A stretch of 64,000 bases of DNA from Candidatus Nomurabacteria bacterium (GTDB taxonomy: Bacteria; Patescibacteriota; Minisyncoccia; Phycocordibacterales; UBA918), in assembly GCA_023898525.1 (NCBI GenBank), contig CP060227.1, positions 173,634-237,633 on the forward strand, given 5' to 3'. Each line of letters starts with the position of its first letter. Position 1 is the first letter of the stretch. The position numbers and the translations under genes are program-made. Below the pieces are notes generated by a model. The model did not search any database. It was not told where the DNA came from and saw only the letters and a list, made by a program, of their open reading frames with translations. Below, in pieces: positions 6,423-39,825 of the stretch.

Positions 6423-7715
6423 TTACTTTCTTTTCTGCCACTCTCTACCCTGTCTGACCAGCAGCTCAGATGCTCGTTCTGGCTCCTGCATTATTTCTTC
6501 AACAATCCTTTCGGCTCGCACTCCTTGTGAACCCTTAATCAAAATAACATCACCAGGCTTGATAAAAGCTTGTAACTCTCGACCAGCTCTAGCGGCATCG
6601 TCGTATTGATAGACCGTTTTGTCACTCAAGCCATTATTTAGAGACGCTTCTGCCATACTCCGCGCCCTGACTCCAACTGTAAACAAGACATCAGCACAGT
6701 GTGGCACGAATTCACCTATTTTCTCGTGTTCACGTGCCGAAAATTGACCCAACTCCAACATATCACCTAGTACAGCAATTTTGCGCTTGGCGTAACGAAT
6801 CTCTTTTAAGGTGGCGAGGGCTTGGACTGTAGCAGCTGGTGATGCGTTGTATGAGTCATCAATAATCACCGTCCCTTTAATACCGGCTAATATATTCATC
6901 CGACCAGGTGGAGGCAGATATTCCTCAAGCGCCTTAGCCGCCTCTGCTACTGAGACTCCACACGAAACGGCAGTAGCAATGGCGGCGGCGCATGTATAGA
7001 CATACTGCACACCAACGGCTCCCGCCACTTTAACTTCATACTTGTCACCAAGATTATCAATCACAAAACTGATTCCGGCTGGTACATCATCCCGATAGTA
7101 TATCTGGTCTTTCCCAGCTAAAAAATGAGAGCTTAGATAACGACTAAAACCGATTGCTTTATGTCTGAACTCGGGTAACTTTGATTGGATAATTTCATCA
7201 TCGTGGTTATAAACTATAACCCCTTCCGGATCAAGCGCGTCAACGAGTCTTAATTTTTCTTCAACTACGGCTTCAGGTGAAGCAAAATATTCAACATGTA
7301 CCGGCACATCAGGCAATCTAGTCAAAACTACAATGTGTGGCTTGAGCCATTTAGTTAAATTTACCATGTCATTTGGCCTATCGATACCAGCTTCGATAAT
7401 CAAATATTCAGGATAATCCTTAGCAAAAAAGGCAATAAAAAAACCGTCCACTATATTTTTAAGCCACAAAAAAGGATTGTTCCAAGCATTCGGTAAACCA
7501 AGGACAGTAAGTGGGACTCCAATTTCAGAATTAAAACTTTTCTCACTTTTCCTGGTCACATAGTGATTTTTTAAGATACTATAGATAGCATCTTTGGCGG
7601 CTGTCTTACCGACACTACCTGTTACCGCCACAATTACCGGGCGACGACGATTCAAGAGCCGTTTGGCCTCAAAAGTAAGAATTCTAACAACAACTGATTT
7701 CAAAAACTTTTTCAT
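6423..7715 (-). CDS. murF: Mur ligase, most likely UDP-MurNAc-tripeptide--D-Ala-D-Ala ligase MurF
   Basis: AVTGSVGKTAAKD (Mur ligase P-loop), DDSYNASP (MurF-type motif rather than MurE DNPR); immediately downstream of ftsI. Confidence 0.65.
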   Translation of the reverse strand: MKKFLKSVVVRILTFEAKRLLNRRRPVIVAVTGSVGKTAAKDAIYSILKNHYVTRKSEKSFNSEIGVPLTVLGLPNAWNNPFLWLKNIVDGFFIAFFAKDYPEYLIIEAGIDRPNDMVNLTKWLKPHIVVLTRLPDVPVHVEYFASPEAVVEEKLRLVDALDPEGVIVYNHDDEIIQSKLPEFRHKAIGFSRYLSSHFLAGKDQIYYRDDVPAGISFVIDNLGDKYEVKVAGAVGVQYVYTCAAAIATAVSCGVSVAEAAKALEEYLPPPGRMNILAGIKGTVIIDDSYNASPAATVQALATLKEIRYAKRKIAVLGDMLELGQFSAREHEKIGEFVPHCADVLFTVGVRARSMAEASLNNGLSDKTVYQYDDAARAGRELQAFIKPGDVILIKGSQGVRAERIVEEIMQEPERASELLVRQGREWQKRK

Positions 7716-7716
7716 G

Positions 7717-15384: not shown

Positions 15385-16356
15385 TTAATCACTGACTGTT
15401 GTCGACGCACTCGAAGACGCAACCTCTAATACTGCTATATCTTGAGTAGCTAAAACGTCGGTAAGTGAATCAGTCAACTCGCGATTTAATTTTAACTTTT
15501 GCTCAATCTCCTCTTCTATATTATCTACAATTTCTACCTCTGTCTTTGGTTGAACCACATTTGTGTCGATTGAAACATAAAAAATACTGTTCATTGCTAC
15601 CGGTGGTACAACATATCCATATTGTTCCGGCTGGGTCGGGTGATTTTCAACCCAAGCGATCTCACCATAGACCCCGCTAGTTAGGGCTGGCAACAATACC
15701 TCATTGCCAACCGTCATTGGTACCCCTTGTGGCAAACTAACCCGTGCCACCCCACCACCAACTCCCTGAATATCCGCAAATACATTTGGTCCAATTATGT
15801 AAGCAGTGGCCTCAAACCCAGAGGTGGTAAATAATTCTACAAAGGAATATTTTGGAGTCACATGACTAACAATACCAAGAACAGAGTCTAACCCGGAATA
15901 CACCGGCATCCCAACTTCAAGCCCAGCCTCTGAACCTTGATCAATTTGAAGTGAATCATAGACCAAAGTACTAGGTTGAGCGATAACCCGAGCTACTATG
16001 CGCTGATTGGGAGTATCAACATTTGCCAACTTCCTCAACTGCATATTCTCCATTAACAAACGCTGGATTGTAAGTTGAGTACCGGTTTCGGTAGCGTCTT
16101 TTGCTCGCAATTCTTCCAACTCTGTCACGAGTTCCGCCTTTGAACGTAAATAAGTAGGAAAAACACCATTTGAATTTTTAACCCAGACAGTAACCACATG
16201 AAATGGATAAAGGGCAACCGAAGCCACTTGTGACGTAAGCCAAGGTAGTAACCAGCCAATAAAAATAAGCGCCGCTGCCACCAAAATCCAAGTCCGTCGT
16301 TTTTTATGACTGATATGGCGATAATTCACCTTCGTTGTCGATGAGTATTTCTTCAT
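15385..16356 (-). CDS. mreC: rod shape-determining protein MreC
   Basis: N-terminal TM helix, coiled coil (LVTELEELRAKDAT), beta-rich C-terminal part; start is ambiguous (16374 or 16356), both overlap the mreB 3' end. Confidence 0.65.
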   Translation of the reverse strand: MKKYSSTTKVNYRHISHKKRRTWILVAAALIFIGWLLPWLTSQVASVALYPFHVVTVWVKNSNGVFPTYLRSKAELVTELEELRAKDATETGTQLTIQRLLMENMQLRKLANVDTPNQRIVARVIAQPSTLVYDSLQIDQGSEAGLEVGMPVYSGLDSVLGIVSHVTPKYSFVELFTTSGFEATAYIIGPNVFADIQGVGGGVARVSLPQGVPMTVGNEVLLPALTSGVYGEIAWVENHPTQPEQYGYVVPPVAMNSIFYVSIDTNVVQPKTEVEIVDNIEEEIEQKLKLNRELTDSLTDVLATQDIAVLEVASSSASTTVSD

Positions 16357-17377
16357 ATTCTTCAAAATTTTCAATCACAATCCCCGTACCCCTGATTACC
16401 GAACGGAGGGGGTCGGGTACTACAATAACCGGAACCTGGAGACTTTCTTCAAGTAAAGTAGACAAGCCCGGTATCAACGCCCCACCACCACAGACATGAA
16501 CACCACGCTGCATAACATCGGCCAGGACTTCCGGTGGTGTTTTTTCAAGGACAGCTTTAGTGGTTTCCACAATGCTATCAATCTGATTTACTACCGCATC
16601 TCTAACATCACTAGCAGTGATGATTACTTCACGTGGTAACCCAGTCATAACGTCACGTCCTCGAATAATCATTTCATTACCACTTCCCTCCGGATTAACT
16701 GAAGCTAAGGCAATTTTAGCATCTTCTGCCGTCTTTTCACCGACATAAACTTTGAATTGATCACGAACATAAGACGAAATAGCAGCATTCAAATGATCAC
16801 CGGCCACCCGTAAATTTTTGGCCACCACAATACCATTAAGAGAAATAACCGCGATATCGGTAGTTCCTCCACCGATATCAATAATCATGTTACCGGCTGC
16901 TTTATTTATTGGTAATTTGGCGCCAATAGCGGCAGCCATAGGTTCTTCAATTAGAAACACATCACGAGCACCAGCGTTCTTAGCCGCATCTCGAGCCGCT
17001 CGCATTTCCACATTAGTGATACCAGACGGTACACCAATCAAAATTCGTGGCGGAACTAATGAACGAGTTTCGTTTTGTACTTTATTTATCAGGTAACCAA
17101 GCATTTCCTCGGTTACTTCAAAATCAGAGATCACACCATCCACCAATGGTCGCACCACTTCAATGTGCTGTGGCGTACGCCCCTGCATAGTTTTAGCCTC
17201 GATACCGACCGCCACTAACTGGCCAGTTTTCTTATTAACCGCTACTATCGTTGGCTCATTTAGTACAATACCCTTGTTTTTAACGTAAACCAGAGTATTA
17301 GCCGTACCTAGGTCAATAGCCATATCAGTTGAAACAACCGATAAAAGCTTGTTGAAATTTTGCGATAACCTACCCAT
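16304..17377 (-). CDS. mreB: rod shape-determining actin homologue MreB (with acidic C-terminal extension)
   Basis: MAIDLGTANTLVY (phosphate-1), DIGGGTTDIAV (phosphate-2), GGGALIPGL (adenosine motif). Confidence 0.9.
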   Translation of the reverse strand: MGRLSQNFNKLLSVVSTDMAIDLGTANTLVYVKNKGIVLNEPTIVAVNKKTGQLVAVGIEAKTMQGRTPQHIEVVRPLVDGVISDFEVTEEMLGYLINKVQNETRSLVPPRILIGVPSGITNVEMRAARDAAKNAGARDVFLIEEPMAAAIGAKLPINKAAGNMIIDIGGGTTDIAVISLNGIVVAKNLRVAGDHLNAAISSYVRDQFKVYVGEKTAEDAKIALASVNPEGSGNEMIIRGRDVMTGLPREVIITASDVRDAVVNQIDSIVETTKAVLEKTPPEVLADVMQRGVHVCGGGALIPGLSTLLEESLQVPVIVVPDPLRSVIRGTGIVIENFEEYEEILIDNEGELSPYQS

Positions 17378-21059: not shown

Positions 21060-22742
21060 TTATGCTGGATTACGTTTTTTTTGTAAATCTAGAATATGCT
21101 TGATGACGCGACGTAAATACAACTCAAAAGTCTCTCCTTGCTCATAGATAATACCCTGCTCATAGCGCCAACCATTCATGTAGTCTGTGATGCTTTGTCT
21201 GATTTCTTGAGTAGCTCCCTCAAAACGACCGGCTAGTAAAAGTGGGATCTGCAACCCAGCTATCTTCTTAAAGAGAGGGTGCTCCCGTCCACTTGGGCCG
21301 GTACCAAACAGTCCACTTTTCTTGAACAGACTCCAATCCGACAATAACTGCTCTAAGCCACTGTCAATTTCTGCGGTATACAAAGGATTGGTAACGCCAG
21401 CTTCAGTTTTTGAGCTATCAGCTAAATCATTAGGTGTAAGGTTGCGCTTTCGGTCAGCCAGCGAAGGAACATTTGATTGTACCGGTAAAGTAGATTCTGC
21501 TGACGGCTGTCTTGGCGGAGTTGGTGGTGTAACCGCTACCGGAGTAACTGGGTTTGGGGCTGATGGCACAGTATTAATCTGAGATGCTGGAACATTCTCT
21601 GGTGTTGGTGAAATTGGTTCCGGCTCCACCATCGGCATAGGAGTGACCTCAACCACCGGTCTAGGTGGTATAACAGGCTCTACCGCGGCCGGGGGCGGAG
21701 TTGGTGGTGGTGTAACTACTACCGGTTTTGGTGTGACCGGAGCAACCGATTGAGAGGTAACAGGCTCAGGCGGTGTAGAAACGGGAGTTGGTGTTGAGGC
21801 TGGTTGTGGTGTAGTCTGGGCAACTTCTGAAACAACAGACGGTTTTTGCTTAGCTTGTTCTTTCATTTCAATTGCCTTTTGAACTGCTACAAAGGCAGTT
21901 TCCAATCTCTGCATTGCCACGTCTATACCTCCAACTCCACCATTCATTTTCTTCATCGCATCCAAAAGTGCGTTCATGTATTCGCGACCAACTTCATTAT
22001 CTATATCTACCAAATTCACTGGATTACCAACTTTTTGGTTTACTACCGCTTTAATTTCTCGAATACGATTTAGGTAGCTTGACTGTTCTGGAGATGGTGT
22101 AGGAGCGGCGGCAGGTGTAGATGGAGCCGGTTGCACCGGTGAAGTGGTTTGTGTCGGCGGATTTGTCGACGCTGGTGAAGCCGAAGCAGGGGGCACTGGT
22201 GTGGTAGTAGCCGTGTCAGAAACTGACGGAGTAATTGGTGGAGTCACCTTCGGTATATCAGCTGGCGCAGCCATCGTAACAGGAGAAACTGTCACCTGAT
22301 CAGCTTGTTTTACTTCTTCAAGAGGTTTTTGACTTACTGCAGGGGACACCTCTCCAGTCTGAGTCTGAGCTGAAGCTGGAGGAGGCACTGGCTGAGTATC
22401 CAAAGCTTTAGCTTCAGAAGCAGATACGGTTGGTTTACGAAAAGTTGGAGCTGGACGCATACTACCAAAAGGTAAGTCTGGTTCGGGAGCAGGTGCCACC
22501 TCAGGCTCTGTCGGTTTTTTGATAGCCGCCACCGGAGTAATATTGTGTGCCGAAAGTTTCTGCTCTAAAGAAATTCTTACCGACTCATCTTGCCCTCCGT
22601 TTTTATATAAAAAGACAAGGTCGCGTAATTCATTTTTTTCAGCTGAGGACAACTCACTCTGACGAATACCAGCCAAGAGAGCGGTGATACCTGCCTGTGT
22701 AGTAAAGTCATAACTTGAAACCAAGGAACCAGTTTTATCCAT
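21060..22742 (-). CDS. hypothetical protein with about 300-aa Pro/Thr/Ala/Val/Ser-rich low-complexity core
   Basis: 560 aa, no signal peptide, structured N- and C-terminal domains separated by PTPP/PVTP-rich repeats. Confidence 0.4.
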   Translation of the reverse strand: MDKTGSLVSSYDFTTQAGITALLAGIRQSELSSAEKNELRDLVFLYKNGGQDESVRISLEQKLSAHNITPVAAIKKPTEPEVAPAPEPDLPFGSMRPAPTFRKPTVSASEAKALDTQPVPPPASAQTQTGEVSPAVSQKPLEEVKQADQVTVSPVTMAAPADIPKVTPPITPSVSDTATTTPVPPASASPASTNPPTQTTSPVQPAPSTPAAAPTPSPEQSSYLNRIREIKAVVNQKVGNPVNLVDIDNEVGREYMNALLDAMKKMNGGVGGIDVAMQRLETAFVAVQKAIEMKEQAKQKPSVVSEVAQTTPQPASTPTPVSTPPEPVTSQSVAPVTPKPVVVTPPPTPPPAAVEPVIPPRPVVEVTPMPMVEPEPISPTPENVPASQINTVPSAPNPVTPVAVTPPTPPRQPSAESTLPVQSNVPSLADRKRNLTPNDLADSSKTEAGVTNPLYTAEIDSGLEQLLSDWSLFKKSGLFGTGPSGREHPLFKKIAGLQIPLLLAGRFEGATQEIRQSITDYMNGWRYEQGIIYEQGETFELYLRRVIKHILDLQKKRNPA

Positions 22743-22826
22743 AACTCCTAAATAATAACATCTAGCAAATCAAAACGCAGTAACGAAGCAGTCGATAAAT
22801 GTGAATTAAAAAAAATATGACCATCA

Positions 22827-23126
22827 CTAAAGTATAGAGCTCACTTCGGATTGAAAAGCTTTCATTTCTTCGTCCAACAGTTCACAAAAATCCGGATATT
22901 TTTCACAAAGGATTTCAAAAAAGTTCTCTGCTCCCACGTTTAGATTAATAAAAGACTCAAATTCTCGAGAAGTTTCTTCAGGGGTAATGGCTAGATATTT
23001 CATTAGCGCACTTTGAAAAACCAGAGTACCTACTTCCTCCGCGAATGCCTGCTCTACTTCGCCCTGAACAGCACTTTGGTCTGATGGTGATTGCGTGTCT
23101 CCAATTTTATTGTTGTCTGTTATCAT
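22827..23126 (-). CDS. small acidic hypothetical protein (99 aa)
   Basis: ORF in operon position between the giant protein and the PT-rich protein. Confidence 0.3.
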   Translation of the reverse strand: MITDNNKIGDTQSPSDQSAVQGEVEQAFAEEVGTLVFQSALMKYLAITPEETSREFESFINLNVGAENFFEILCEKYPDFCELLDEEMKAFQSEVSSIL

Positions 23127-23135
23127 AATTTTATT

Positions 23136-26100
23136 TTATCTATAAACATTTTGATTAGCTAATGTTTGAGCACTATGCTCCACAACAAATCGAGAAAACA
23201 GATCAGATATCTTTGTGTTATCTGTATATTGTAGACCAGACTGCTTTAAATTATTTATTGCATCCATCCAAGCTACCGCTGCTTCGTACTTAATATTATG
23301 AACTTCACTAGAAGGAACAGTGTCTCTACCCAGGTAGTGCAGTTGACCACTTTCCGGTGCAGTATTGTTTAGCGCATGAATAAGATAGTCTCTACCGTAC
23401 TGATCATATAAGTACTGCATATCACCAAACTCCTTCATGGTCATATTCCCATACACAGACATAAAGCTGTCATAATGATTCCTAGCATCAAAGAAGTCAT
23501 AGGCTCCGGCATCAACTTGATTCGTTGCTTCATTTATAGCTGCGTTTAGATTTTTTTCACTACCAAAAACCTGTAGAGCATAATCCTTGTACTCTGGGCT
23601 ATGGAAGAAATTGTCAGAATTATAAGTTTCCGGCGGCTGGATATTAGCCGAGACAACGTTTTCTACACTAGGTAAATTTAAATTTGTTTGATCTACTTCA
23701 AATTTCAAAACCGAGTGGATATCCCAAGCTGGATTACGAGCAGCTTCAGCCGTAAGTGCTTGCCAGACCCCAGCCTTTAATTCATATGGTGCTATACTAG
23801 GATCTTTGGCAACCAATTCAGCTGCGACAGTTTGTGCATAGTCATTCATTGCCAAGGTCACCGGAGTTGAGGTGCCGGGCTTAGTGGCAAATTCAATTAA
23901 TGGTGATTCCTCGACCCTCTCAGCAATTTCACTTACTTGGATATCCGGATGATTGGCAGTAATAGGTATGACTTCTTCACTTGACCCATCCGCCACTACT
24001 TCTAGGTGACCGGAAGAAGGTGAAGTTGGAAGATCTATATCGTTTTTCTCAAGTTCAATTAACTTATTCAATTCCCCTTCTAAGGGACCTAAATTGATCT
24101 TATCTCCAGGATAAATTAATTCTGTATCATTGATATTGGCTAACTCACGCAAAACCTCATCGGCCCGAACTTTATCAAAGAGAGCGTCTAGCACTTGATT
24201 ACGCTCACTTGGTGACAAATCTGCCAACTCAGACTGATACCTGTCTTCTACAATATCCCAAAGAGTATCGCCCTTTACAACCGTATGAATATTCTCAACA
24301 TTTTCTACATTTGATGTAGTCTGATCTACCGCATGCTCTCGCCAAGCTTCTGCCACCTCGTTATTTAAGGCATTCTCAGCGGTTGAGTTTACCTCAGCGG
24401 TAGCCGAAGAAGCTAAGTCGGAAGCGTCGATTTTTTCTATACTACCAATCTCAACTTTAGTGATTGGACTTTCCTGCCACCAGTCAGTTTCGCCAAACTT
24501 ACCCTCCAGCTTCCCAAGCAGGGTCTCGGATAGATTATCGGCTGTCATATTAGGATGAAGCGCCAACAGGTTGCTGGTATTTAGACGCAGGTAGCTTTCA
24601 ACTTGTACTAGGTTTTCACCGCTTAAATCTTCCGCGCCAACCACAGACAAATCTTTAACCAGAGTACTGAATTGTTCATGACTAAAGCTATAATTAGGTA
24701 CAGTAATCTTATCAACCACTTCAGTTACACCAACATTTCCTGCTACTGCTTCAGTAGCCGAAGAAGTTTCCTCACCACCAAGCATGTCAAGAATCTCAGG
24801 ATTTTTATCCAAAGCTGCTGCTATTTGTTCACTGGTGGCATCTGTCGCCTTACTTACACTTTCAGAAATTTGATCAGCAGAGCCCAGATGAGACATTCCA
24901 TAGCCGGTCAATCCTCCGGCTAGGAAACCGGCTCCTATAGTAGCTGCTGTTCTTTGGCTCTGTGCAGCCTTAGCTTTTCGCAATGCCTGCATTACTTCCT
25001 CTTCATAATTATCTATATCATCGACTGAAAAATCTTCGCCTTCCATAAGCTTCTCAGCTTTTGCCTCAGCTTTCCTGACCTTAAAACTCATTACCTGATC
25101 AGCACCCAAGGCAGCACCGGAGCTGATAGCCATACGAGCACCAGCCACACCAGCCGCCGCAGCACCAGCCAGTACACCCGCGCCGAGTATAATTCCCCCT
25201 CTGACCCACCACTTGGTCTTTTTAAGTTTCATCATTACTCTGCCCACCGTCTTTGCCTGCTCTTCAGTCAGAATCTCAGTTTTCTGTATATCCAACCTTT
25301 CCTTACCAGGTCGCAAAACGAACTTTTTTAAGAATGCCTGATCCACTTTTTGTTCATAGCCTGTTGGTTTAGGAGCTTTTTCTTTATTGTAGGAGGCAAG
25401 ATAGGCTGCCGTCTCACTTTCAAGCTTACTCTTATGAAACTCTTCGTTCACAGACAACTTACCCCTCTCTTTCATTGCTAAGCGTAATTTCCTTGTATAT
25501 TCCTTTCTGGATACTTTGTACTTATCTTCCAAGACTTTGATGTTGTCAGGTAATTTAGGCTTTAAACCAAGGAACTTTTTACCCCAATCTTTAATCTTAC
25601 CAAGTCCACCACGATTAGCGTAATAATTTTTTACCGCATCTTCGTACTCTTTTTTGTTGTCTTGATATGCTTCCTTGAACGTCTTATCAGTTCCCTCAAC
25701 TTTAGAAAACAAAAGATCTTGTTTAGCTTTTTGATAATCGGTTAGTTCTATTTCTTTTTCGTCTTTTGTTTTAAGTTCAACTTTTTCTTTATCGCTTAAT
25801 TCAAGAGTTTCCACAGCTTCGTTATCCATGTCCACAAATTCAGCTTCTTTTTTAGTAGCGACATCACTTTCTTCAAGGTCAAAAAGTTTATCTGGAGTTG
25901 ATTTATCAATATTTATAACTTCCCCTTCACTTTCGGTACTTAAGTCGTCTTCTGAACCTACTTCTGCATCAACTACACCGTCCCTAAGCTTAATCTCTTC
26001 CTGGAGAGTTGGAATTTCATCAGCCTTTGGTTCAAATTTTTCATCCGCATCTCCATCGCCACCATTTTCCTTATTATCTGTCTTCTGAACACCATCAATT

Positions 26101-27413
26101 TCATCATTACTTTCAACTTCTTCCATCTCACCAACTTTTTTTGACAAACTTGCAATTACAGATTCCAGCTTTACTTTTTTCTCTTCTAATTCATTACACA
26201 CTTCCTCGGAAGCTTCATTTTTTACAACTTCATTAAATTCTTTTACTATATTTTGACCCTCTTCAATAAATCGTCTTACTGTGGGTGTGGGTGTGGGTGT
26301 AGGTATTTGAGATCTTGTGTTTTTAGCAACACTTTTAGCTTTATTTACTGTATTTTCAAATTTAGACTCAACTAAGCTAAACTCTGAAACAATTTCACTC
26401 TTTCTTTCTGCAAAATCCTGAACCTCTTCTGCTTTTGTATCTGCTACTTCTTTTTGATCTTCAGCACCATTTGACTTACTGGCATCTGTACGTCTGTTTT
26501 TATATTTAAAGTTTTCATCTTTTATTTTTTTAATCAAATCGTATAGACCGTACTTCAATTCTACTAATTTATCTCGAAACGTCCTAGAATTTTGTACATC
26601 ACTATTACTATTATTCAGCAAATTATTAAATTCAACCTCTTTTTGTTTTAAAAGTTTAAGCTTAGAAACCAGAGTTTCTGGTAAGCCATTCAAAATAGGC
26701 TCTGGTAGACTATCTAGATCACCGCCAAAGTTAAGCCTTAAAAAGCCATTATTGAAGTTATCAAAAACTCCAGCGATTTTATTTTTTAGATTCGCATATT
26801 TATCTTCGTTTTTTTCTGGTTGAGCATTACCTTCTTCATTTATACCTTCTCTTTTTTCTTTAATCTCATCCAACTTATCTTTATTTTCTTCAATTAGTTG
26901 ACTAATTGAGCTTATCGTCTCATTGAATAATCGAAAACTCCTCGGAAGTCGATTCTCTATATGATTCTTTAGCAAATTTTGATCAGATTCCCTTAGAAGG
27001 TTGCCTATGGCCATTAGGACAGAATTTGCAGTCACTATATGACTATTCATGAGATGAATAGAATCTCTTAATAATTCAGCATCTTCTTTTATTCTTTCAA
27101 ACTCTTGTCTAGAATTCTCAAGCAACTCTTTTAACTCCCCTACATCATCAGGCAGTTTTTCAGCATCAATTTCTAATTTTAGTTCAACCTCATCTATCTG
27201 AGGTTCTTCTAAGGGCTCGTCTACGGGGTCAGTATTTACTTCTACACCTGAATCTTGCTCGACTGTATTATCGCCATTAGACCTTTCAACCGTTTCTGTA
27301 TCAGAGTTTTCATTTGATTCATTTTCGCCAACATCCTCAACAATCTCAGCGTCCACTATTTCGGCTCCAGGTTTATTAGCTTTTTGAGACAAACTTTCTA
27401 TTCTCATAGACAA
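23136..27413 (-). CDS. giant (1425 aa) coiled-coil membrane protein with C-terminal LysM domain
   Basis: about 720-aa acidic coiled-coil N-terminal part (PTPTPT linker), TM segments (WWVRGGIILGAGVLAGAAAAGVAG; TAATIGAGFLAGGLTGYG), LysM-like HTVVKGDTLWDIVEDRY...IYPGDKINL. Confidence 0.5.
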   Translation of the reverse strand: MSMRIESLSQKANKPGAEIVDAEIVEDVGENESNENSDTETVERSNGDNTVEQDSGVEVNTDPVDEPLEEPQIDEVELKLEIDAEKLPDDVGELKELLENSRQEFERIKEDAELLRDSIHLMNSHIVTANSVLMAIGNLLRESDQNLLKNHIENRLPRSFRLFNETISSISQLIEENKDKLDEIKEKREGINEEGNAQPEKNEDKYANLKNKIAGVFDNFNNGFLRLNFGGDLDSLPEPILNGLPETLVSKLKLLKQKEVEFNNLLNNSNSDVQNSRTFRDKLVELKYGLYDLIKKIKDENFKYKNRRTDASKSNGAEDQKEVADTKAEEVQDFAERKSEIVSEFSLVESKFENTVNKAKSVAKNTRSQIPTPTPTPTVRRFIEEGQNIVKEFNEVVKNEASEEVCNELEEKKVKLESVIASLSKKVGEMEEVESNDEIDGVQKTDNKENGGDGDADEKFEPKADEIPTLQEEIKLRDGVVDAEVGSEDDLSTESEGEVINIDKSTPDKLFDLEESDVATKKEAEFVDMDNEAVETLELSDKEKVELKTKDEKEIELTDYQKAKQDLLFSKVEGTDKTFKEAYQDNKKEYEDAVKNYYANRGGLGKIKDWGKKFLGLKPKLPDNIKVLEDKYKVSRKEYTRKLRLAMKERGKLSVNEEFHKSKLESETAAYLASYNKEKAPKPTGYEQKVDQAFLKKFVLRPGKERLDIQKTEILTEEQAKTVGRVMMKLKKTKWWVRGGIILGAGVLAGAAAAGVAGARMAISSGAALGADQVMSFKVRKAEAKAEKLMEGEDFSVDDIDNYEEEVMQALRKAKAAQSQRTAATIGAGFLAGGLTGYGMSHLGSADQISESVSKATDATSEQIAAALDKNPEILDMLGGEETSSATEAVAGNVGVTEVVDKITVPNYSFSHEQFSTLVKDLSVVGAEDLSGENLVQVESYLRLNTSNLLALHPNMTADNLSETLLGKLEGKFGETDWWQESPITKVEIGSIEKIDASDLASSATAEVNSTAENALNNEVAEAWREHAVDQTTSNVENVENIHTVVKGDTLWDIVEDRYQSELADLSPSERNQVLDALFDKVRADEVLRELANINDTELIYPGDKINLGPLEGELNKLIELEKNDIDLPTSPSSGHLEVVADGSSEEVIPITANHPDIQVSEIAERVEESPLIEFATKPGTSTPVTLAMNDYAQTVAAELVAKDPSIAPYELKAGVWQALTAEAARNPAWDIHSVLKFEVDQTNLNLPSVENVVSANIQPPETYNSDNFFHSPEYKDYALQVFGSEKNLNAAINEATNQVDAGAYDFFDARNHYDSFMSVYGNMTMKEFGDMQYLYDQYGRDYLIHALNNTAPESGQLHYLGRDTVPSSEVHNIKYEAAVAWMDAINNLKQSGLQYTDNTKISDLFSRFVVEHSAQTLANQNVYR

Positions 27414-27441
27414 ATAATTATTGGTTTAATCATACCACACC

Positions 27442-30213
27442 CTATAAAACCAGCGGCGTCTCTTTAGCATACCGTGCGGATATCTCAGCTTCGACCTCAG
27501 CCCGCGGACGGCCGTGGGTATGATAACTTAATTCGATCATTTCATTGATTCTGGTGAGATCAGTCGGTGGTGGTGGCATGGTCTTAATATTGAAAGGCTT
27601 GGTCGGTGTGCCGTTGGCCAAAATACGCACCAAGGCATTGCGGTTTGGAATATTCATTAAATTGCTGGCATTAAATGGTGGTGAGAACTGATGTTCCAGG
27701 AACTGAGCATCCTCGGGACCAACCCGAAAAGCCGCCATTGAACCCACGTTGCCAAACACAGCATCTTTAATGTTGGGATCAAGCTGGGCAATAAATTGAT
27801 GAGCAATAGTGAGGCCAAGCTTATACTTACGCGCCTCAGACAAAATCGCCGATATGGAATTGGTTGAGACATTCTGAAACTCATCCATATGGAGATAAAA
27901 CGGTGCAAACCCTCGAGTTGGATCATCCACTCGAGACAATGCCGCCATCAGTATCTTGCCAACAATTATCATACCAATCAGATTGGCATTAATTTCTCCC
28001 AATCGACCTTTCGATAGATTGACTAAGAGAATCTTACGTTCGTCCATTACCTGCCGGAAGTTAAAGGCTGATTTTTGTTGCCCGATGATTGGCCGCATGT
28101 AGTCATTGGCGGTAAAAACATCGAATTTAGATACGATATAAGGCACAATATTCTCAAGCGACGCTTCACCACCAGCCTTTGAAGCAATTTCCCGCCAAAA
28201 CTGTACAACCACAGGGTTGGTAGCCTTTTCTAGTTTCATTCGACGATATTTAGCGTCGGCCATAACTCGCGAGATATCCATCAAAGTATTGCCGCTGTCA
28301 GGGTCTTCCATGACTAACAAAGTGGCGTTACGGAAGTATTGTTCAAACATTGGCCCCATTGACTCCGGATTGGCTCCGTAGAGCTTTTGGAAAATTGAAA
28401 ACAGCTCATTGACCACAAAGGTCTTCTGCTCCGGCTTGGTAATATCATACTCAAGCATGTTGAGTGCGAGGATGCGGTCGAGTCGCGATGGGTCAAAGTA
28501 AATAACATCCTGTTCTCGCTCTTTTGGTACCGCACTGAGCACATCCTCAATATCGGTTCCATGAGGATCTATCATACACACACCATCACCCCGCAAAATA
28601 TCTTGCGTTATCATATTTTTCATTAGCGTGGTCTTACCAGTACCAGTCTGTCCAATGATATAGAAGTGTCGCAAACGGTCTTCGTTGGTTATGTAGATTT
28701 CACGTTCTGAATTGCGATGATTATTTATACCAAGCAATGTTCCTTCGGTTGGCATGTCATTGGGAGCCGCTGCCGTGTTGGCATGCGATTGTTTAAACTG
28801 CGGTGAAGATAGAACACCATTACCTGGAAAATGAATCAAAGTTGATAATTCAGTCAAGTTGAACGGAATAATCGCTTTAGTCCAAAATTCGCGAAAAGCA
28901 AAAGCTTTCTGAAGTGATTTAAGACTTCCTTTGGCCCGCTTAGGCGCAAAACTATTACCATCAACCAGATCAAATTGATTGAAGGTAGATTCAATCTCTC
29001 CTAAAATTTGCTCGGCTCTAGCGCTGTCTCGAGCTGAAACTGCTATCCGAATATTTGTTTCTACAATCTCTGACTTGACCTTTCGGGAGAATACTTCAAT
29101 TTTATCGGACTCTATGGTCGATGATGAACCTTCACCCTCTTTTGGTTTTTTGCTAAAGATTAAATCAGACAAAGAACCCATAATCTCACCACCAATAGTG
29201 CTACGCGAAATTGCCTCACCCGCTTTCATACCTTTCTGCATGTTTTTGATCACTTCGCTGTAACTTTTGTTGTATTTTTTTTGCGGATAACGCATCAAAA
29301 ACTGCACCGCCGCACCGCCGCCTTCGCGCTCAATTTTAGAAAAAGCATTTAAAATAACCGCCAGCGGATCAGAGGTAAAGCCGTCATGCGTACGAATTGG
29401 GTAAATTGGATGCTTTTTTAACTTTAACTCACTGATCAAAGTTACTCCTTGATCAACAAAGATATTATAATCATGCGCCTGCACTGTCAGTTCAGCGTGT
29501 GGAAACAGCGACAATACCTGCTTTTCAAATAAGGTGACAAACTGATTAGGAACCGCAACATAAAATACGATATCATCACTAAAATCCGCCACCGCAATCT
29601 CAATAGCAAAATGATTGTGCGACTGCTCCGAACCAATATTTCTAAGGCCGGCAAACAACTGCTCCATCATCCCGATCAGCTCTGATAACTGATATTCTCG
29701 CCCATCAGCTGCTTTAGTCTCCGGTAAAGTTAGCTCATAAAGTGTCATATGAAGTAGGTGCCAAGTCGGCATCCCCTCTTTTATATCCTGAATATTTACC
29801 CCAGACCGAATTTGCTCCACCAAACGACGATGGACTTGGTCGATAATGTAGGCGTTGTCGGTTTTTTCTAGAACCGACAACGCATTTCTAATCCCTTTTT
29901 CTAGCGCAATATGTACTATTTCTTCCACCGGATCTGCCGCTAAAGCCACCTGCTCGCTGGCCACCGCCACATCAGCTTCAGCAAATTTGTGTTTAGGATC
30001 AAGGACTGACCTAGGAGTAAAAGAAGCGTATTCTCTAATCTCCTGCTTACCAACAGTTTCGATATCAGCCTGGTCTACTTCCGGACTACGAGCCAAAAGC
30101 TCGCGCTCACGCGCCGCAATTTGCTCACGCAGATAACTAATCTCCTCTTCCGGAGAAGTGAATTTCTTAGGTATTCCCTCTGGCATAGCCACATTGTATC
30201 TTAGTTTTGACAC
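27442..30213 (-). CDS. type IV coupling protein-like ATPase (VirD4/TraG/TraD family homologue), 923 aa
   Basis: Walker A IIGQTGTGKTTL, Walker B YLHMDEFQN, then ARKYKLGLTIAHQFIAQL (T4CP-like RxxG...Q...QL region); no VirB-type partners seen nearby. Confidence 0.55.
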   Translation of the reverse strand: MSKLRYNVAMPEGIPKKFTSPEEEISYLREQIAARERELLARSPEVDQADIETVGKQEIREYASFTPRSVLDPKHKFAEADVAVASEQVALAADPVEEIVHIALEKGIRNALSVLEKTDNAYIIDQVHRRLVEQIRSGVNIQDIKEGMPTWHLLHMTLYELTLPETKAADGREYQLSELIGMMEQLFAGLRNIGSEQSHNHFAIEIAVADFSDDIVFYVAVPNQFVTLFEKQVLSLFPHAELTVQAHDYNIFVDQGVTLISELKLKKHPIYPIRTHDGFTSDPLAVILNAFSKIEREGGGAAVQFLMRYPQKKYNKSYSEVIKNMQKGMKAGEAISRSTIGGEIMGSLSDLIFSKKPKEGEGSSSTIESDKIEVFSRKVKSEIVETNIRIAVSARDSARAEQILGEIESTFNQFDLVDGNSFAPKRAKGSLKSLQKAFAFREFWTKAIIPFNLTELSTLIHFPGNGVLSSPQFKQSHANTAAAPNDMPTEGTLLGINNHRNSEREIYITNEDRLRHFYIIGQTGTGKTTLMKNMITQDILRGDGVCMIDPHGTDIEDVLSAVPKEREQDVIYFDPSRLDRILALNMLEYDITKPEQKTFVVNELFSIFQKLYGANPESMGPMFEQYFRNATLLVMEDPDSGNTLMDISRVMADAKYRRMKLEKATNPVVVQFWREIASKAGGEASLENIVPYIVSKFDVFTANDYMRPIIGQQKSAFNFRQVMDERKILLVNLSKGRLGEINANLIGMIIVGKILMAALSRVDDPTRGFAPFYLHMDEFQNVSTNSISAILSEARKYKLGLTIAHQFIAQLDPNIKDAVFGNVGSMAAFRVGPEDAQFLEHQFSPPFNASNLMNIPNRNALVRILANGTPTKPFNIKTMPPPPTDLTRINEMIELSYHTHGRPRAEVEAEISARYAKETPLVL

Positions 30214-30282: not shown

Positions 30283-31299
30283 CTATCGTTTAGCTAGCAC
30301 TGTCCGTTTGTAGGTATCAAGGTGCTCTAATGCAATACCAGTACCGGTAGCCACACAAAAGAGTGCTTGGTCGGCCAATTGCGCCTTAACACCGGTACGC
30401 CGCTTGATTAATTCGGGAAAATTGCGCAACTGTGAAGTTCCACCAGTCATTATTATTCCACCATCGATAATATCCGAGGCTAGTTCCGGAGGAGTGTCTT
30501 GAAAAACATCCTTAATAGCTTTGACCATTTCTCGCAATTCTCGGCCAATTGCCCGCACTACTTCATTGGTACGCATCTCGGTAGTACGCGGCAAACCAGA
30601 CAAGACATCACGCCCTTTAATATCCATCACCAACTCCTCTTCCAAGGGCAAGGCCGAGCCGATAGTTATCTTAATTTCTTCAGCCGTTTTTTCACCAATA
30701 GATAAATTGCGAGTTTTTTTCACATAATCAACAATCGCTGTATCTATCCGGTTACCGGCGCATTTAACTGAGTTGGAAGCCACGATACCTCCCAAAGAAA
30801 TAACCGCCACATCGATCGTACCACCACCAATATCAATAATCATATGCCCCTGCGCCTCATAGATCGGCACCCCAGCCCCAATCGCCGCCAATATCGGCTC
30901 TTTTACCACATAGGCGTTCTTGGCCCCCGCCTTGATTGTCGCTTCCACCACAGCCCGTCTTTCGGTCGAAGTGACTCCCGCCGGCACTGACACCATCACA
31001 TCCGGTTTAAAAATATTGAATCGACCAAGGGCTTTGCGCAAAAAGTAGCGAAGCATAGCCTCAGTCACCCGATAGTCCGCAATTACTCCATCCTTCATCG
31101 GACGGTAAGCACGAATCGTATCTGGCGTACGACCAATCATCCGTTTTGCTTCAGCTCCAACTGCCACCACTCGGTTATCATCAGACACCGCCACCACCGA
31201 TGGTTCGTTTAGTACAATCCCGTGACCAGGTACAAACACCAGAATGCTGGTAGTACCAAGATCTATGCCAATTTTTGGGTTCAAATTATTCCAGGCCAT
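30283..31299 (-). CDS. second MreB-like actin homologue
   Basis: KIGIDLGTTSILVFV, DIGGGTIDVAV, GGIIMTGGTSQL; start set at MAWNNLNPKIGIDLG (ATG at 31299) rather than the ORF-track start 31377. Confidence 0.7.
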   Translation of the reverse strand: MAWNNLNPKIGIDLGTTSILVFVPGHGIVLNEPSVVAVSDDNRVVAVGAEAKRMIGRTPDTIRAYRPMKDGVIADYRVTEAMLRYFLRKALGRFNIFKPDVMVSVPAGVTSTERRAVVEATIKAGAKNAYVVKEPILAAIGAGVPIYEAQGHMIIDIGGGTIDVAVISLGGIVASNSVKCAGNRIDTAIVDYVKKTRNLSIGEKTAEEIKITIGSALPLEEELVMDIKGRDVLSGLPRTTEMRTNEVVRAIGRELREMVKAIKDVFQDTPPELASDIIDGGIIMTGGTSQLRNFPELIKRRTGVKAQLADQALFCVATGTGIALEHLDTYKRTVLAKR

Positions 31300-31465
31300 G
31301 TTTTGGGTATATATTACCTTCTTTCTCGAAAACAACAAAGGGTGGGCTAAAAAAATACCAAGGGTAACCCTAGGCAAGCCTGCCTAGGGTTACCCTTGGT
31401 ATTTCCCTTGGTATTTTTAGCCTTGGTATTCTACACTCTTTGACCACTAGCACCGTATAGCATAT

Positions 31466-32983
31466 ATGCTATACTGTGTTTCTATGTTAAATATTGGACA
31501 CAAGATAGCAGACTTACGAGAAACCAAGGGTATTACTCAGACCGAATTAGCCAAGACATTAAAAACCACCCAAAGTGCCGTAGCCAGAATGGAAGCTGGC
31601 AAGCAAAATATCAGCGCTGACATGCTCAAACGAATCGGTAAGGCGCTAGGCAAGAATCTGATCACTCTCTCCCCTGGTACAGTAAATGTAGAAATTGAAG
31701 GTGGACACAAACTAAACGGTACTATAGAAACCAACACCTCTAAAAATGGCGCTGTTGGCCTACTCTGTGCCAGCTTACTAAACCGTGGTACCACCACCCT
31801 GCACCGCATGCCCCGAATTGAAGAAGTACATCGCATCGTTGAAGTTCTAGAGAGCATCGGTAGTAGAGTTGAGTGGCAAGGTAGCACCATCACGATTACT
31901 CCACCCAAGAAATACCAACTCAACAAAATTGACGTTGAAGCTGCCAAGCGAACCCGCAGCATTGTCATGTTTATCGGTCCACTAATTCATCATTTTGCAA
32001 AATTTAACCTACCACAATCCGGTGGCTGCAAACTCGGTAGCCGCACCGTCAAGCCGCACTTTTTCGCCTTAGAGAACTTTGGTGTAAATATAAAGGCCAC
32101 AAATGACAGCTTTGAAATAACTAAAAGCAACAAGAGACCTTCAGAAGTCATCCTTTACGAATCAGGTGACACGGTTACTGAAAACGCACTGTTTGCCGCC
32201 GCCTTGACTCCTAACACTACCGTCATCAAATACGCCACCGCTAATTACATGGTGCAAGAAATCTGCATCTTTCTTCAACTACTAGGCGTAAAGATAGATG
32301 GCATTGGCACCACCACCCTAACCGTTACTGGAATATCAAATATTAATAAAAATGTTGAATACACCTTATCTGAAGACCCGACCGATAGTATGTTTTTCTT
32401 GGCTGCCGCTATCGTCACCAACTCAGCTATCACCATTACTCGCTGTCCGATTGATTTTCTAGAACTGGAGCTCTTAAAACTAGAAAAAATGGGCTTTAAG
32501 TACACTAAGTCCAAGCCTTACTTATCGCACAATAATTTCACCAAGCTGGTTGATATTACGACAAAACCATCAAAACTGGTCGCTCTTCATGAAAAAATTC
32601 ACCCTTCTGTTTACCCAGGCTTAAACATCGACAACCTTCCCTTCTTCGCCGTTATCGCTACGCAAGCTAAGGGTCAAACCCTGATTCACGACTGGGTCTA
32701 TGAGAAACGCGCCATTTATTTTACCGAACTCGAAAAACTAGGAGCTGACACCGTACTAGCTGACCCGCACCGCATCTTTATCACCGGACCAACCGAACTC
32801 AAAGCTAACGAACTTATCTGTCCACCTGCCCTCCGCCCGGCTACCATCCTTCTCATTGCCATGCTTGGAGCCAAGGGTCATAGCGTGCTTCGCAATATCT
32901 ACAGCATCAACCGTGGTTACGAAAACCTAGTAGAGCGCCTCGCTTCGCTCGGCGCTCAGATTAAGTACTTGGATGAGTTTTAA
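31466..32983 (+). CDS. murA: XRE-type HTH domain fused to UDP-N-acetylglucosamine 1-carboxyvinyltransferase (MurA)
   Basis: N-terminal HTH_3 (IGHKIADLRETKGITQTELAKTLKTTQSAVARMEAGKQNIS); EPT-fold body with catalytic-Cys loop SGGCKLGSRTVKPH aligning to E. coli PGGCTIGARPVDLH; C-terminal NRGYENLVERLASLGAQI. Confidence 0.6.
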   Translation: MLYCVSMLNIGHKIADLRETKGITQTELAKTLKTTQSAVARMEAGKQNISADMLKRIGKALGKNLITLSPGTVNVEIEGGHKLNGTIETNTSKNGAVGLLCASLLNRGTTTLHRMPRIEEVHRIVEVLESIGSRVEWQGSTITITPPKKYQLNKIDVEAAKRTRSIVMFIGPLIHHFAKFNLPQSGGCKLGSRTVKPHFFALENFGVNIKATNDSFEITKSNKRPSEVILYESGDTVTENALFAAALTPNTTVIKYATANYMVQEICIFLQLLGVKIDGIGTTTLTVTGISNINKNVEYTLSEDPTDSMFFLAAAIVTNSAITITRCPIDFLELELLKLEKMGFKYTKSKPYLSHNNFTKLVDITTKPSKLVALHEKIHPSVYPGLNIDNLPFFAVIATQAKGQTLIHDWVYEKRAIYFTELEKLGADTVLADPHRIFITGPTELKANELICPPALRPATILLIAMLGAKGHSVLRNIYSINRGYENLVERLASLGAQIKYLDEF

Positions 32984-38003: not shown

Positions 38004-38099
38004 ACAACCACTTGAGTCAAACCAGACTTAAGTGGCTAATAGCCAGAACAATCACAATTAAATATTCCGCCGTAGCTCAGTGGTAGAGCAGTTGGCTGT

Positions 38100-38705
38100 G
38101 AACACACCGTGTTTCAAGCCTGATATACTAAATACAATGAGTGTACCAGACAAAAGAACATATGCCGATCGTGCCGAGTATTTGAAAAAAGCTGTTTCTG
38201 ACAGAAGAAGAAAACTGAAGGAAATGGCAATTGAATACGGGGGTGGCAAATGTCAAATTTGTGGTTATAAAAAATGCAAGAGAGCTTTAAGCTTTCACCA
38301 CAAAGATGCTAACAAGAAAGACTTTGGTCTTTCTGCAAAAGGACTCACTAGATCTTGGAATAAGATCAAGAAAGAACTTGATAAATGCATCCTAGTTTGT
38401 GCAAATTGCCACATGGAACTACACGATGGTATCACGCAGCTTCCTACTGAAAAGTAGGTCGAAAACGAGGTGAATTGCTGGAAGCCTTAGCAAGTAATGT
38501 TGCAGGTAATCAGCAGCCAAGCTTGAGTTGAAAAACTCTTGAAGGTTCAGAGACTATCCTTTATGGAGTACCCAGCTCTAGATTTAATTTTCAAAATTTT
38601 GAAAATTAAATCTAGAGCTGGGGAAGCGCCTCGCATCCAACAACAGCAAAAAACTGAAAAGGATGATGATATAGTCCACCCCTTTTAGAAATATTAGGAC
38701 AAGTG
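38100..38705 (+). mobile_element. group I self-splicing intron with embedded HNH homing endonuclease ORF
   Basis: conserved P (AATTGCTGGAAG 38473-84), Q (AATCAGCAGCC 38508-18), R (GTTCAGAGACTA 38545-56), S (ATGATATAGTCC 38665-76) elements; 26-bp perfect P8-position hairpin 38571..38623; intron preceded by U and ends in G. Confidence 0.75.
38137..38457 (+). CDS. HNH (His-Me finger) homing endonuclease encoded in the 5' peripheral region of the group I intron
   Basis: CQICGY...ALSFHHKD...CANCHMELH (four Cys plus HH...N...H); 107 aa from ATG 38137 (ORF track extends upstream via GTG into the tRNA exon). Confidence 0.7.
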   Translation: MSVPDKRTYADRAEYLKKAVSDRRRKLKEMAIEYGGGKCQICGYKKCKRALSFHHKDANKKDFGLSAKGLTRSWNKIKKELDKCILVCANCHMELHDGITQLPTEK

Positions 38706-38749: not shown

Positions 38750-39825
38750 TGAATAATCTCACATACATATGAGACTCCTTAAATAAGGAGTAATGAGAAT
38801 ACATAACATTTTAAGGAACACCAGAGGGTTTGCCAAAGCGGCTGATAGTGCTCTAAAGTGGCAGACAATGAAAAACAAACAGGAGGTCGAAAGAAGAGTT
38901 AAAATACTCACGTTTTGGCAAAAACATGGTACTAATACCACCAAAGATGCTTTTGGCGTATCTAGACCAACTTTATTTAGATGGCAAAAAGAACTAAATG
39001 ATAGTAATGGTAATATCCAAGCCCTAGACCCCAAGAGTACTGCTCCTAAGAAACGAAGAGTGAGACAGATATCACCACCACTAGAGCAAGCTATTATCAA
39101 CTGGCGTACTAAGCGACCACGGATTGGTGGGAAAAAGCTGGTACCGCTATTGAAGAAGGAAGGATTCAAGGTGTCAGTTTCCTATGTTAATCGCTGTATC
39201 AGTGATCTTAAAGAACTAGGTAGACTACCGAATCCAGTTAAGCTCTCTTGGTACGCTAAGAGTGGTACACACAAAGAACAAAGAAAAACCAAGGTTAAAA
39301 AACAAAGAAGACCACAAAAACAAGGTTTGGAGATAGACACTATCGTGAGACACATAGATGGCACTAAACGGTACATACTCACCGCCATAGACATAGAAAG
39401 ACGGTTTGCTTACGCTCGTACTTATACCAGTCATTCTTCAAATAGTGCTCGAGACTTTCTAAAACAACTTATACACTATACCCCTTTTAGTATAGATGAG
39501 ATACAGACTGATAATGGTTCAGAATTCGCTAAATACTTCCACGAAGCTTGTTTAACTCTTAACATCAACCATTATCACACTTATCCACGTTGTCCTAAGA
39601 TGAATGCCTATATAGAGCGATTCAATCGTACCGTTCAAGAAGAACACATTATTTATCACCGATCCCTGCTTCGAGATAGTATTCCTGACTTCAATGATTC
39701 ACTGAATGAATGGTTGTATTGGTATAACCATGAGAGACCGCATGAAGGACTGGGTCTTTTGTCGCCCATGGAGTATTATAGAGAACATTATGAGATAGAG
39801 TCTCAAAGGTGGTGAGATCGTACAA
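38750..39825 (+). mobile_element. IS481-family insertion sequence, copy 1 (1076 bp), inserted 7 bp downstream of the tRNA-Asn 3' end
   Basis: 100% identical over 1076 bp (compared directly in sequence) to 62627..63702; imperfect terminal IRs around TGAATAATCTCAC / GGTGAGATCGTACAA; possible 5-bp flanking repeat AAATC. Confidence 0.8.
38793..39815 (+). CDS. IS481-family DDE transposase (HTH + rve integrase core)
   Basis: DDE triad context: IDTIVRHIDG..., TDNGSEFAKYF, NAYIERFNRTVQEE; YNHERPHEGLG; 340 aa single ORF. Confidence 0.85.
   Translation: MRIHNILRNTRGFAKAADSALKWQTMKNKQEVERRVKILTFWQKHGTNTTKDAFGVSRPTLFRWQKELNDSNGNIQALDPKSTAPKKRRVRQISPPLEQAIINWRTKRPRIGGKKLVPLLKKEGFKVSVSYVNRCISDLKELGRLPNPVKLSWYAKSGTHKEQRKTKVKKQRRPQKQGLEIDTIVRHIDGTKRYILTAIDIERRFAYARTYTSHSSNSARDFLKQLIHYTPFSIDEIQTDNGSEFAKYFHEACLTLNINHYHTYPRCPKMNAYIERFNRTVQEEHIIYHRSLLRDSIPDFNDSLNEWLYWYNHERPHEGLGLLSPMEYYREHYEIESQRW

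Follow-up and report, generated by a model that had tools for sequence, protein, structure and literature searches.

We analyzed a stretch of 64,000 nucleotides from Candidatus Nomurabacteria bacterium (GCA_023898525.1, CP060227.1, positions 173,634-237,633 of the forward strand), here called the window, and give all coordinates as window positions. It encodes a MurA, the UDP-N-acetylglucosamine (UDP-GlcNAc) enolpyruvyl transferase, that carries an XRE-type helix-turn-helix (HTH) domain at its N-terminus. The fusion of the two domains is real, as confirmed by the comparisons below. We think it likely, on the strength of sequence comparisons, that the fused protein is a bifunctional, autorepressing trigger enzyme, a MurA with its HTH on a palindrome in its own promoter. 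The control of MurA, which opens peptidoglycan synthesis and is targeted by fosfomycin, is mostly post-translational, by proteolysis in Firmicutes and by feedback from UDP-MurNAc (MurNAc, N-acetylmuramic acid). The argument concerns the following elements.

31484..32983, plus strand: coding sequence of HTH-MurA with corrected start (499 aa and stop codon; almost all homologues have 499 aa, counted from the equivalent Met)
31505..31660, plus strand: XRE/Cro-C1-type HTH_3 domain, predicted to bind DNA (Pfam HTH_3; helices in the AlphaFold2 (AF2) model)
31565..31594, plus strand: start of the recognition helix, TTQSAVARME, aa 28-37 (TTQS and TSQS variants partition with the half-site in 82 loci)
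31649..31684, plus strand: linker between HTH and MurA, aa 56-67 (AF2: no secondary structure at aa 56-67)
31688..32971, plus strand: MurA domain (Pfam, NCBIfam, PDB, Foldseek)
31457..31472, no strand assigned: putative operator ATAGCA-TATA-TGCTAT (half-site centres 10 bp apart; conserved and unique)
31467..31475, plus strand: predicted extended -10 element TGCTATACT (TGnTATAnT; right half of the palindrome plus three bases)

The open reading frame (ORF) at 31466-32983 on the plus strand is a single uninterrupted frame of 505 aa. A preliminary description of the locus had claimed one continuous ORF that joins a complete N-terminal HTH_3 domain to MurA with a preserved catalytic cysteine loop, and all of this was borne out. 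Judging from the homologues, the true start is ATG 31484, and the extension of the ORF to 31466 is an artefact of mechanical calling. ATG 31466 forms the centre of the palindrome, inside the conserved palindrome/-10 element, a position that explains why translation does not begin there.

In Pfam, HTH_3 matches aa 14-65 of the 505-aa ORF (E-value 1.3e-12, 48 bits against a gathering cutoff of 23), and HTH_31 and HTH_19 match as well. The closest solved relatives of the HTH are the DNA-binding XRE proteins HigA, ClgR, 434 repressor and C.AhdI. The AF2 model (mean predicted local distance difference test score (pLDDT) 91.3, predicted TM-score (pTM) 0.83) has a four-helix HTH at aa 4-55 (helices at aa 4-15, 19-26, 30-37 and 45-55, turn at aa 27-29, in 499-aa numbering) and a confident MurA body. 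The linker that tethers the one to the other is, according to this model, short and flexible, with pLDDT below 50 at aa 62-65.

The MurA assignment is supported by several searches. EPSP_synthase (PF00275) covers aa 78-492 of the 505-aa ORF with an E-value of 1.2e-44. The NCBIfam models give a mixed outcome: the MurA subfamily model NF006873 is passed (312 bits, cutoff 297), the equivalog model TIGR01072 is not (305 bits, cutoff 393), and the score for NF009470 lies far under its cutoff. The best sequence match in the PDB is a MurA (E-value 9e-56), as are all of the best solved relatives. Foldseek aligns the MurA body with solved MurA structures at TM-scores of 0.87-0.94 and 23-29% identity, and no solved MurA among these matches has an N-terminal HTH like that of the window protein. 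Locked complexes with UDP-MurNAc and a phosphoenolpyruvate (PEP)-Cys adduct are among the structures listed (3swd, 3su9, 3swg).

The cysteine loop SGGCKLGSRTVKPH (nt 32018-32059) aligns with PGGCTIGARPVDLH of E. coli, and Cys182 (nt 32027-32029, 499-aa numbering) is the equivalent of Cys115. Using an E. coli MurA reference checked against PDB 1UAE (419 of 419 residues identical), we found equivalents of K22, N23, R91, C115, R120, D305, R331, L370, R371 and R397 in the window protein, invariant in 78 of 78 orthologues. By sequence, then, the enzyme looks competent.

The HTH extension is conserved when MurA homologues of related genomes are aligned, a check proposed in the preliminary description. 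All of the best 120 homologues in the protein database have both domains, and nearly all have 499 aa. They are named Nomurabacteria, Paceibacterota or Kaiserbacteria, and one database homologue, on a contig of 1,087,875 bp, is 100% identical. Database names of the fused proteins are MurA or "helix-turn-helix domain-containing protein". A scan of GTDB species-representative genomes gave 447 stretches encoding a relative, and our locus comparisons rest on the best 80 of these (∼9.5 kb each, ∼760 kb in total). All of these 80 are labelled Patescibacteria. Their identity to the window protein is 64-87%, and the alignments take in the full protein or nearly so, with the HTH, except for two loci cut at a contig end. 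Synonymous differences are near saturation (∼0.8). The median ratio of nonsynonymous to synonymous differences (pN/pS), taken against the window sequence, is 0.22 for the HTH codons and 0.19 for the MurA codons; by this measure, purifying selection on the HTH is as strong as on MurA.

The putative operator is the core (ATAGCA-N4-TGCTAT) of a full, perfect 20-bp palindrome at 31455-31474 (GTATAGCATA followed by TATGCTATAC). A spacing of 10 bp between half-site centres is the geometry expected for an XRE dimer on one face of the DNA. The exact core occurs once in the 64-kb window. It is also found exactly once in 63 of the 80 related loci, always just upstream of the fused orthologue and nowhere else, and nearly all remaining loci have one-base variants. 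Half-sites carry 1.9 bit of information per position, versus 0.2 for the flanking intergenic DNA, and in 66 of 81 loci a gap of 9-14 nt separates the palindrome from the ATG. We rejected the possibility of a general promoter motif of these genomes, given one copy per 64 kb and one per ∼9.5-kb locus, always at murA.

The hexamer of the predicted -10 element is TATACT, TATATT, TATAGT or TATAAT in 65 of 79 loci. Only 8 nt (GTGTTTCT) lie between this element and ATG 31484, with no Shine-Dalgarno sequence among them, which points to a transcript that is probably leaderless or has almost no leader. A conserved -35 element is absent across the aligned related loci, and a consensus promoter scanner, which requires a -35, reported no promoter upstream of HTH-murA. 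Rfam gave no RNA family at this locus. The preliminary description had proposed looking for an operator-like palindrome at 31380-31465; a conserved palindrome on the gene's own promoter does exist, at 31457-31472 and not in the interval named.

Recognition helix and palindrome half-site change together in the loci compared. Half-sites are ATAGC(A/G) wherever the helix reads TTQS (73 of 73 loci). In the nine loci with TSQS, which belong to distant Patescibacteria, to Nonomuraea and to degenerate relatives (both described below), they are ATATCA, ATCTCA or ATAACA, with ATAGCA in 2 of 18 half-sites. In Nonomuraea, at a GC content of 70-73%, three species share the AT-rich palindrome ATCTCATATGTGAGAT without any change; each locus has a single copy, located 13 nt ahead of the start.

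Where the HTH is missing, so is the motif. In four close MurA relatives without HTH (P0121, P0123, P0124 and P0133; 45-61% identity), ATNNCA-N4-TGNNAT occurs nowhere in the locus. P0121, the most informative of them, retains the divergent mreB and, equally far from the start, TGCTATACT, but its left half-site has become ATGCAA. It nests among the fused orthologues in a rough neighbour-joining tree (no bootstrap), and this position suggests secondary loss of the HTH. Autoregulation by the fused HTH, as put forward in the preliminary description, thus gains support from the conserved promoter palindrome, from the joint change of helix and half-site, and from the absence of the motif where the HTH is missing.

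Most metagenome matches to the exact palindrome, among the matches listed, are unrelated to murA. Among the listed stretches that carry the exact 16-mer, 40 of 120 have a related XRE HTH within ∼700 nt. A standalone XRE protein of 95-105 aa with the helix GTKQSVISRLESG recurs there and starts 0-24 nt past the palindrome, which indicates that this HTH type and the palindrome travel together outside murA. From their layout, the standalone proteins are probably autorepressors, and their genes are a plausible source of the HTH/operator module fused to murA. The family (loci L110, L143, L146, L149, L154, L169 and others) has the consensus ...KAEYDKLQPEFAVI...GTKQSVISRLESGRANPS..., and in metagenome loci its start codon directly abuts the palindrome ATAGCATATATGCTAT.

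An exhaustive profile search of cluster representatives turned up fused proteins with identities of 31-53%. Among these, P0122 has a complete set of catalytic residues, shares 53% identity with the window protein and stands for a cluster of 246 members from cultured Nonomuraea (Actinomycetota), whose genomes have 11-13 Mb. Its gene belongs to a conserved three-gene module of a formyltransferase-enoyl-CoA hydratase fusion (567 aa), HTH-MurA and a tyrosine recombinase. The flanks of the module differ among the loci L206, L213, L215 and L216. The module suggests a mobile or island-borne unit, and the 53% identity of its fused protein to the Patescibacteria protein together with the same operator layout hints at an old horizontal transfer. 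Nonomuraea presumably also has a housekeeping MurA of its own, so intact catalytic residues do not prove that a copy is the sole one.

Seven other representatives (P0131, P0132, P0139, P0148, P0149, P0221 and P0243) keep the HTH and the MurA fold and are catalytically degenerate. Arg91 is lost in all seven, Cys115 and Arg120 are both lost in six (P0149 retains Arg120), and several are without further residues. In two of the degenerate loci the fused pseudo-enzyme is divergent from a canonical murA-murB operon, whose murA encodes 438 or 452 aa with a GGCxLGxR loop. The intergenic region between them is 60-84 nt long and holds a palindrome, ATATCATATATGATAT in one locus and ATAACATATATGCTAT in the other, 10-12 nt before the fused gene. 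A Mur ligase gene lies downstream of the degenerate fused gene, as does Ddl in the P0131 locus. These degenerate fusions are best read, from their residues and neighbours, as ligand-sensing regulators of the adjoining wall-precursor operons. Retention of the complete MurA fold in them lends indirect support to the idea that, in the intact proteins too, the MurA body may be a sensor.

Other features were seen in the wider family. In the P0131 locus (L201), the D-Ala-D-Ala ligase (6493-8082 of that locus, 529 aa) is fused to Peptidase_C39_2, and a small Trp-repressor/HTH_38 protein follows the Mur ligase. P0127 (529 aa) is a catalytically intact protein of the same sub-lineage with a different N-terminal extension of ∼67 aa (…IRQARIKSGLTLEEISIKVGITLEEQLGMEQE…), which looks like a degraded or divergent HTH and has no Pfam match.

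In the mechanism that we propose, an HTH dimer would bind ATAGCA-N4-TGCTAT, which overlaps the gene's own extended -10 just upstream of the probably leaderless start. The bound protein would block RNA polymerase, so that MurA would repress its own synthesis (negative autoregulation) and its level would be capped. A second role as sensor is probable for the MurA body: DNA affinity or dimerisation would vary with its ligand state, be it bound to UDP-GlcNAc or PEP or locked with UDP-MurNAc; the MurA domain closes over UDP-GlcNAc. Such ligand control would tie transcription for the first committed step of wall synthesis to the precursor pool. We rank three possibilities. First, the substrate-engaged enzyme would leave the DNA and surplus precursor would raise MurA synthesis, as with PutA. 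Second, UDP-MurNAc would act as co-repressor, as in BirA. Third, autoregulation would proceed without ligand modulation.

No terminator was found after murA, and the circuit may for this reason extend to downstream genes; from the distribution of the palindrome, it looks purely autoregulatory in the window clade. A further-reaching version holds that the fused protein is the only MurA in these Patescibacteria with their small genomes, that enzyme, sensor and repressor form a self-contained loop in which the protein's own ligand state sets the HTH on the promoter, and that the family is a series from enzyme to regulator. We put this forward tentatively, as possible and somewhat short of probable.

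Several points weigh against autorepression by an active MurA. We infer DNA binding, dimerisation, repression rather than activation and the transcription start from layout and comparison, and the enzymatic activity and ligand control of the fused protein in the same way. The protein scores below the cutoff of the equivalog model TIGR01072 (305 versus 393). Pro or Ala (which of them depends on the alignment) stands in place of Asp369 of the PEP/fosfomycin pocket all through the sub-lineage, also in members that have no HTH, which leaves full MurA activity uncertain. MurA enzymes are mostly monomers, and in the fused protein we identified no element for dimerisation. The right half of the palindrome is also the -10 element and would be conserved anyway. 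The split in helix and half-site may reflect one or few evolutionary events, since the sequences are related to one another. Finally, no second operator was seen in the 64-kb window or in the ∼760 kb of related loci, and none upstream of the penicillin-binding protein (PBP), Mur ligase, mraW or other mreB genes of the window, which leaves control beyond the own gene unsupported in the window clade.

Among the alternatives, one survives best, although we consider it rather unlikely: the fused protein would be mainly a transcription factor, similar to BzdR with the residues not yet lost, in which the MurA-like domain is a ligand sensor while a separate canonical MurA does the catalysis. Such a division is seen in the distant fused relatives, which lost catalytic residues next to a canonical murA. 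The window protein is closer to them (38.6% identity) than to their canonical MurA (27%), and in a neighbour-joining tree all fused forms fall into one MurA sub-lineage, apart from the neighbouring canonical MurAs. Nonomuraea, with an intact fused copy plus (from general knowledge) a housekeeping MurA, also agrees with it. Yet the ten catalytic and binding residues stayed invariant in all 78 orthologues despite saturated synonymous divergence. Members of the sub-lineage without HTH keep these residues too, and one of them, P0121, shares the gene arrangement and is nested among the fused proteins, which fits an ordinary enzyme gene. The 64-kb window contains one MurA-like gene. A search with canonical MurA of the candidate phyla radiation (CPR, the Patescibacteria), which is a weak test, returned proteins of WWE3, Collierbacteria and the Patescibacteria group, none of them on contigs known to carry the fusion.

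A second alternative, which we consider improbable, denies that the fused HTH targets the palindrome: this would instead be a promoter element, a 5' RNA hairpin or a site for standalone XRE proteins, and the fused HTH would do something else. Overlap of the right half with the extended -10 would account for conservation of that half, symmetric changes preserve RNA pairing as well, and standalone XRE proteins with a similar helix use the same palindrome. The left half-site, however, lies in the normally free spacer of the promoter and is as conserved as the right half, and it has decayed in P0121, where the HTH is missing. The sequence itself is conserved, beyond what pairing demands, and the stem is short, AU-rich and only 0-13 nt from the start codon. 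In addition, the half-site type tracks the fused helix across the CPR, Nonomuraea and degenerate clades, and the motif is present in none of the four relatives without HTH.

The gene upstream brings in a third alternative.

30283..31299, minus strand: MreB paralogue, divergent neighbour, likely start at M27 of the listed ORF (Pfam MreB_Mbl, E-value 2e-127)

The cytoplasmic domain of RodZ is an XRE-like HTH that binds MreB, and mreB is the divergent neighbour of the fused gene in 63 of 80 loci. Conceivably, the HTH could mediate protein contacts in the manner of RodZ, holding MurA to the MreB paralogue, and not bind DNA. We rejected this as very improbable. Pfam assigns HTH_3, HTH_31 and HTH_19 to the domain and finds no HTH_25 or RodZ_C; the solved relatives include no RodZ, each of them being an XRE protein that binds DNA; and the protein consists of HTH and MurA only, with no transmembrane segment. 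The fusions in Nonomuraea and at murA-murB loci have no mreB neighbour, and the evidence for an operator would be left unexplained.

The chance that the fusion is an artefact of annotation or sequencing is practically nil. Beyond the caution of the preliminary description, which had considered translation from an internal Met after the HTH or a frameshift joining two genes, nothing speaks for it. All fused orthologues that we examined retain the HTH, and its low pN/pS (0.22) marks it as translated and selected, which refutes both ideas. The unbroken ORF recurs in independent assemblies from many sources, and the predicted promoter and putative operator directly precede the HTH start.

We return to autorepression by the fused MurA after describing its surroundings. 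The preliminary description was correct that the gene is divergent from an MreB-like gene on the minus strand, and mistaken in calling it the only plus-strand gene of the region: HTH-murA opens a plus-strand block that reaches ∼41 kb, with a PriA-like gene (identity read from the translation; no Pfam match), then def and fmt. The mreB paralogue shares its intergenic region with HTH-murA, which is context and does not imply regulation. This arrangement is kept in the 63 loci mentioned and in the locus of P0121.

The shared intergenic region also contains a perfect 24-bp inverted repeat (31353-31376/31381-31404) between the mreB promoter and the putative murA operator. It is unique in the window and falls into the interval first proposed for an operator; we rejected it as such because it is a peculiarity of the window without conservation in related loci; in most of these the intergenic region is shorter and the repeat is missing. 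On the minus strand it resembles an intrinsic terminator with T-run, although this strand carries no gene upstream of it. The repeat is followed, at 31390-31430, by three copies of (C)CTTGGTATT in direct orientation. The possibility that the strand switch at 31.4 kb, with its intergenic repeats, is a replication origin was rejected too, as the GC skew does not change sign there; it is negative throughout the window (-0.05 to -0.22), whatever the gene orientation.

Elsewhere in the window, two MreB paralogues occur within 15 kb, one at 16304-17377 near PBP, MraW and Mur-ligase genes and the other at 30283-31299, and there are two class B PBP-like genes (7717-9435 and 13384-15126). A HerA/TrwB-like ATPase of 923 aa is adjoined by ORFs of 560 aa and 1425 aa without Pfam match (21060-30213), which may belong to the type IV secretion-like machinery of Patescibacteria. 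Rfam identifies a group I intron at 38388-38698 (plus strand, 69 bits). Its 5' end is overlapped by an ORF at 38080-38457 with an HNH-like motif, and it is followed by an rve-type transposase-like ORF at 38793-39815, both read from the translation. No tRNA or rRNA genes were detected in the window.

If the proposed autorepression is correct, a MurA that brings along both a DNA-binding domain and an operator would amount to a novel and highly compact circuit for the control of wall synthesis. The fusion is common in uncultured Patescibacteria, in which gene regulation is almost unknown, and the pseudo-enzyme regulators next to murA-murB point to an undescribed family of regulators of peptidoglycan precursor synthesis. 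Intact fusion, loss of the HTH and dead fused regulators would form a natural series from enzyme to transcription factor, a path so far reconstructed only by artificial chimeras (BzdR, PMC3602430). The presence of the module and its palindrome in cultured Nonomuraea makes the hypothesis directly testable.

An enzyme fused to a transcription factor is a known kind of protein; literature searches brought up no account of one that joins an HTH to MurA. With canonical MurA (E. coli, 1UAE; E. cloacae) the window protein shares the two-domain fold and the equivalents of K22, N23, R91, C115, R120, D305, R331, R371 and R397; it differs by the N-terminal HTH, the replaced Asp369, the score below the TIGR01072 cutoff and its separate sub-lineage. 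With the standalone XRE proteins it shares a similar helix (T-T/K-Q-S-x-I/V-x-R-x-E-x-G), a palindrome ATAGCATATATGCTAT before the start and a layout of the autoregulation type. The standalone proteins, in contrast, have no enzyme domain and carry the HTH at the C-terminal end of a small protein. The known transcriptional inputs on murA are separate regulators such as CodY and VxrB (PMC13204101, a review of peptidoglycan regulation).

PutA, BirA and NadR are classical trigger enzymes with a DNA-binding domain of their own, active enzymes that repress genes of their own pathway including their own gene. The fused protein likewise combines, by sequence, intact catalytic and DNA-binding domains on one polypeptide with a predicted target among the genes of its own pathway, so that the logic would be analogous. 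It is not homologous to them, however. Their DNA-binding domains are of the ribbon-helix-helix or winged HTH type, unlike the XRE domain here, none of them acts in peptidoglycan synthesis, and ligand switching has been demonstrated for them, whereas we infer it for the fused MurA. For the trigger-enzyme concept, see Commichau and Stulke (2008, as cited in PMC6524683). XRE-cupin regulators also join an XRE DNA-binding domain to a small-molecule-sensing domain and control metabolic genes (PMC7901475, PMC10965056). Their sensor is a small cupin, in contrast to the complete and presumably active enzyme of ∼430 aa found here.

The window HTH weakly matches the NCBIfam model PRK08154, "anaerobic benzoate catabolism transcriptional regulator", which we take to be a BzdR-type model. 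BzdR of Azoarcus sp. CIB consists of a DNA-binding domain at the N-terminus, a linker and an effector domain that stems from shikimate kinase (PMC3602430). Its authors proposed that enzymes recruit DNA-binding domains and later lose their activity, and they built the bifunctional intermediate artificially, as the Q1 chimera (PMC3602430). The degenerate fusions (P0131, P0139 and others) resemble BzdR in that an enzyme domain would have turned into a sensor, and the window protein would correspond to the intermediate represented by the Q1 chimera. The enzyme and pathway differ, with shikimate kinase and benzoate degradation in the case of BzdR, and MurA, the EPSP-synthase fold and peptidoglycan synthesis in the present one. 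Moreover, the window protein has not lost its catalytic residues, and the predicted target is its own promoter or, in the degenerate clade, murA-murB.

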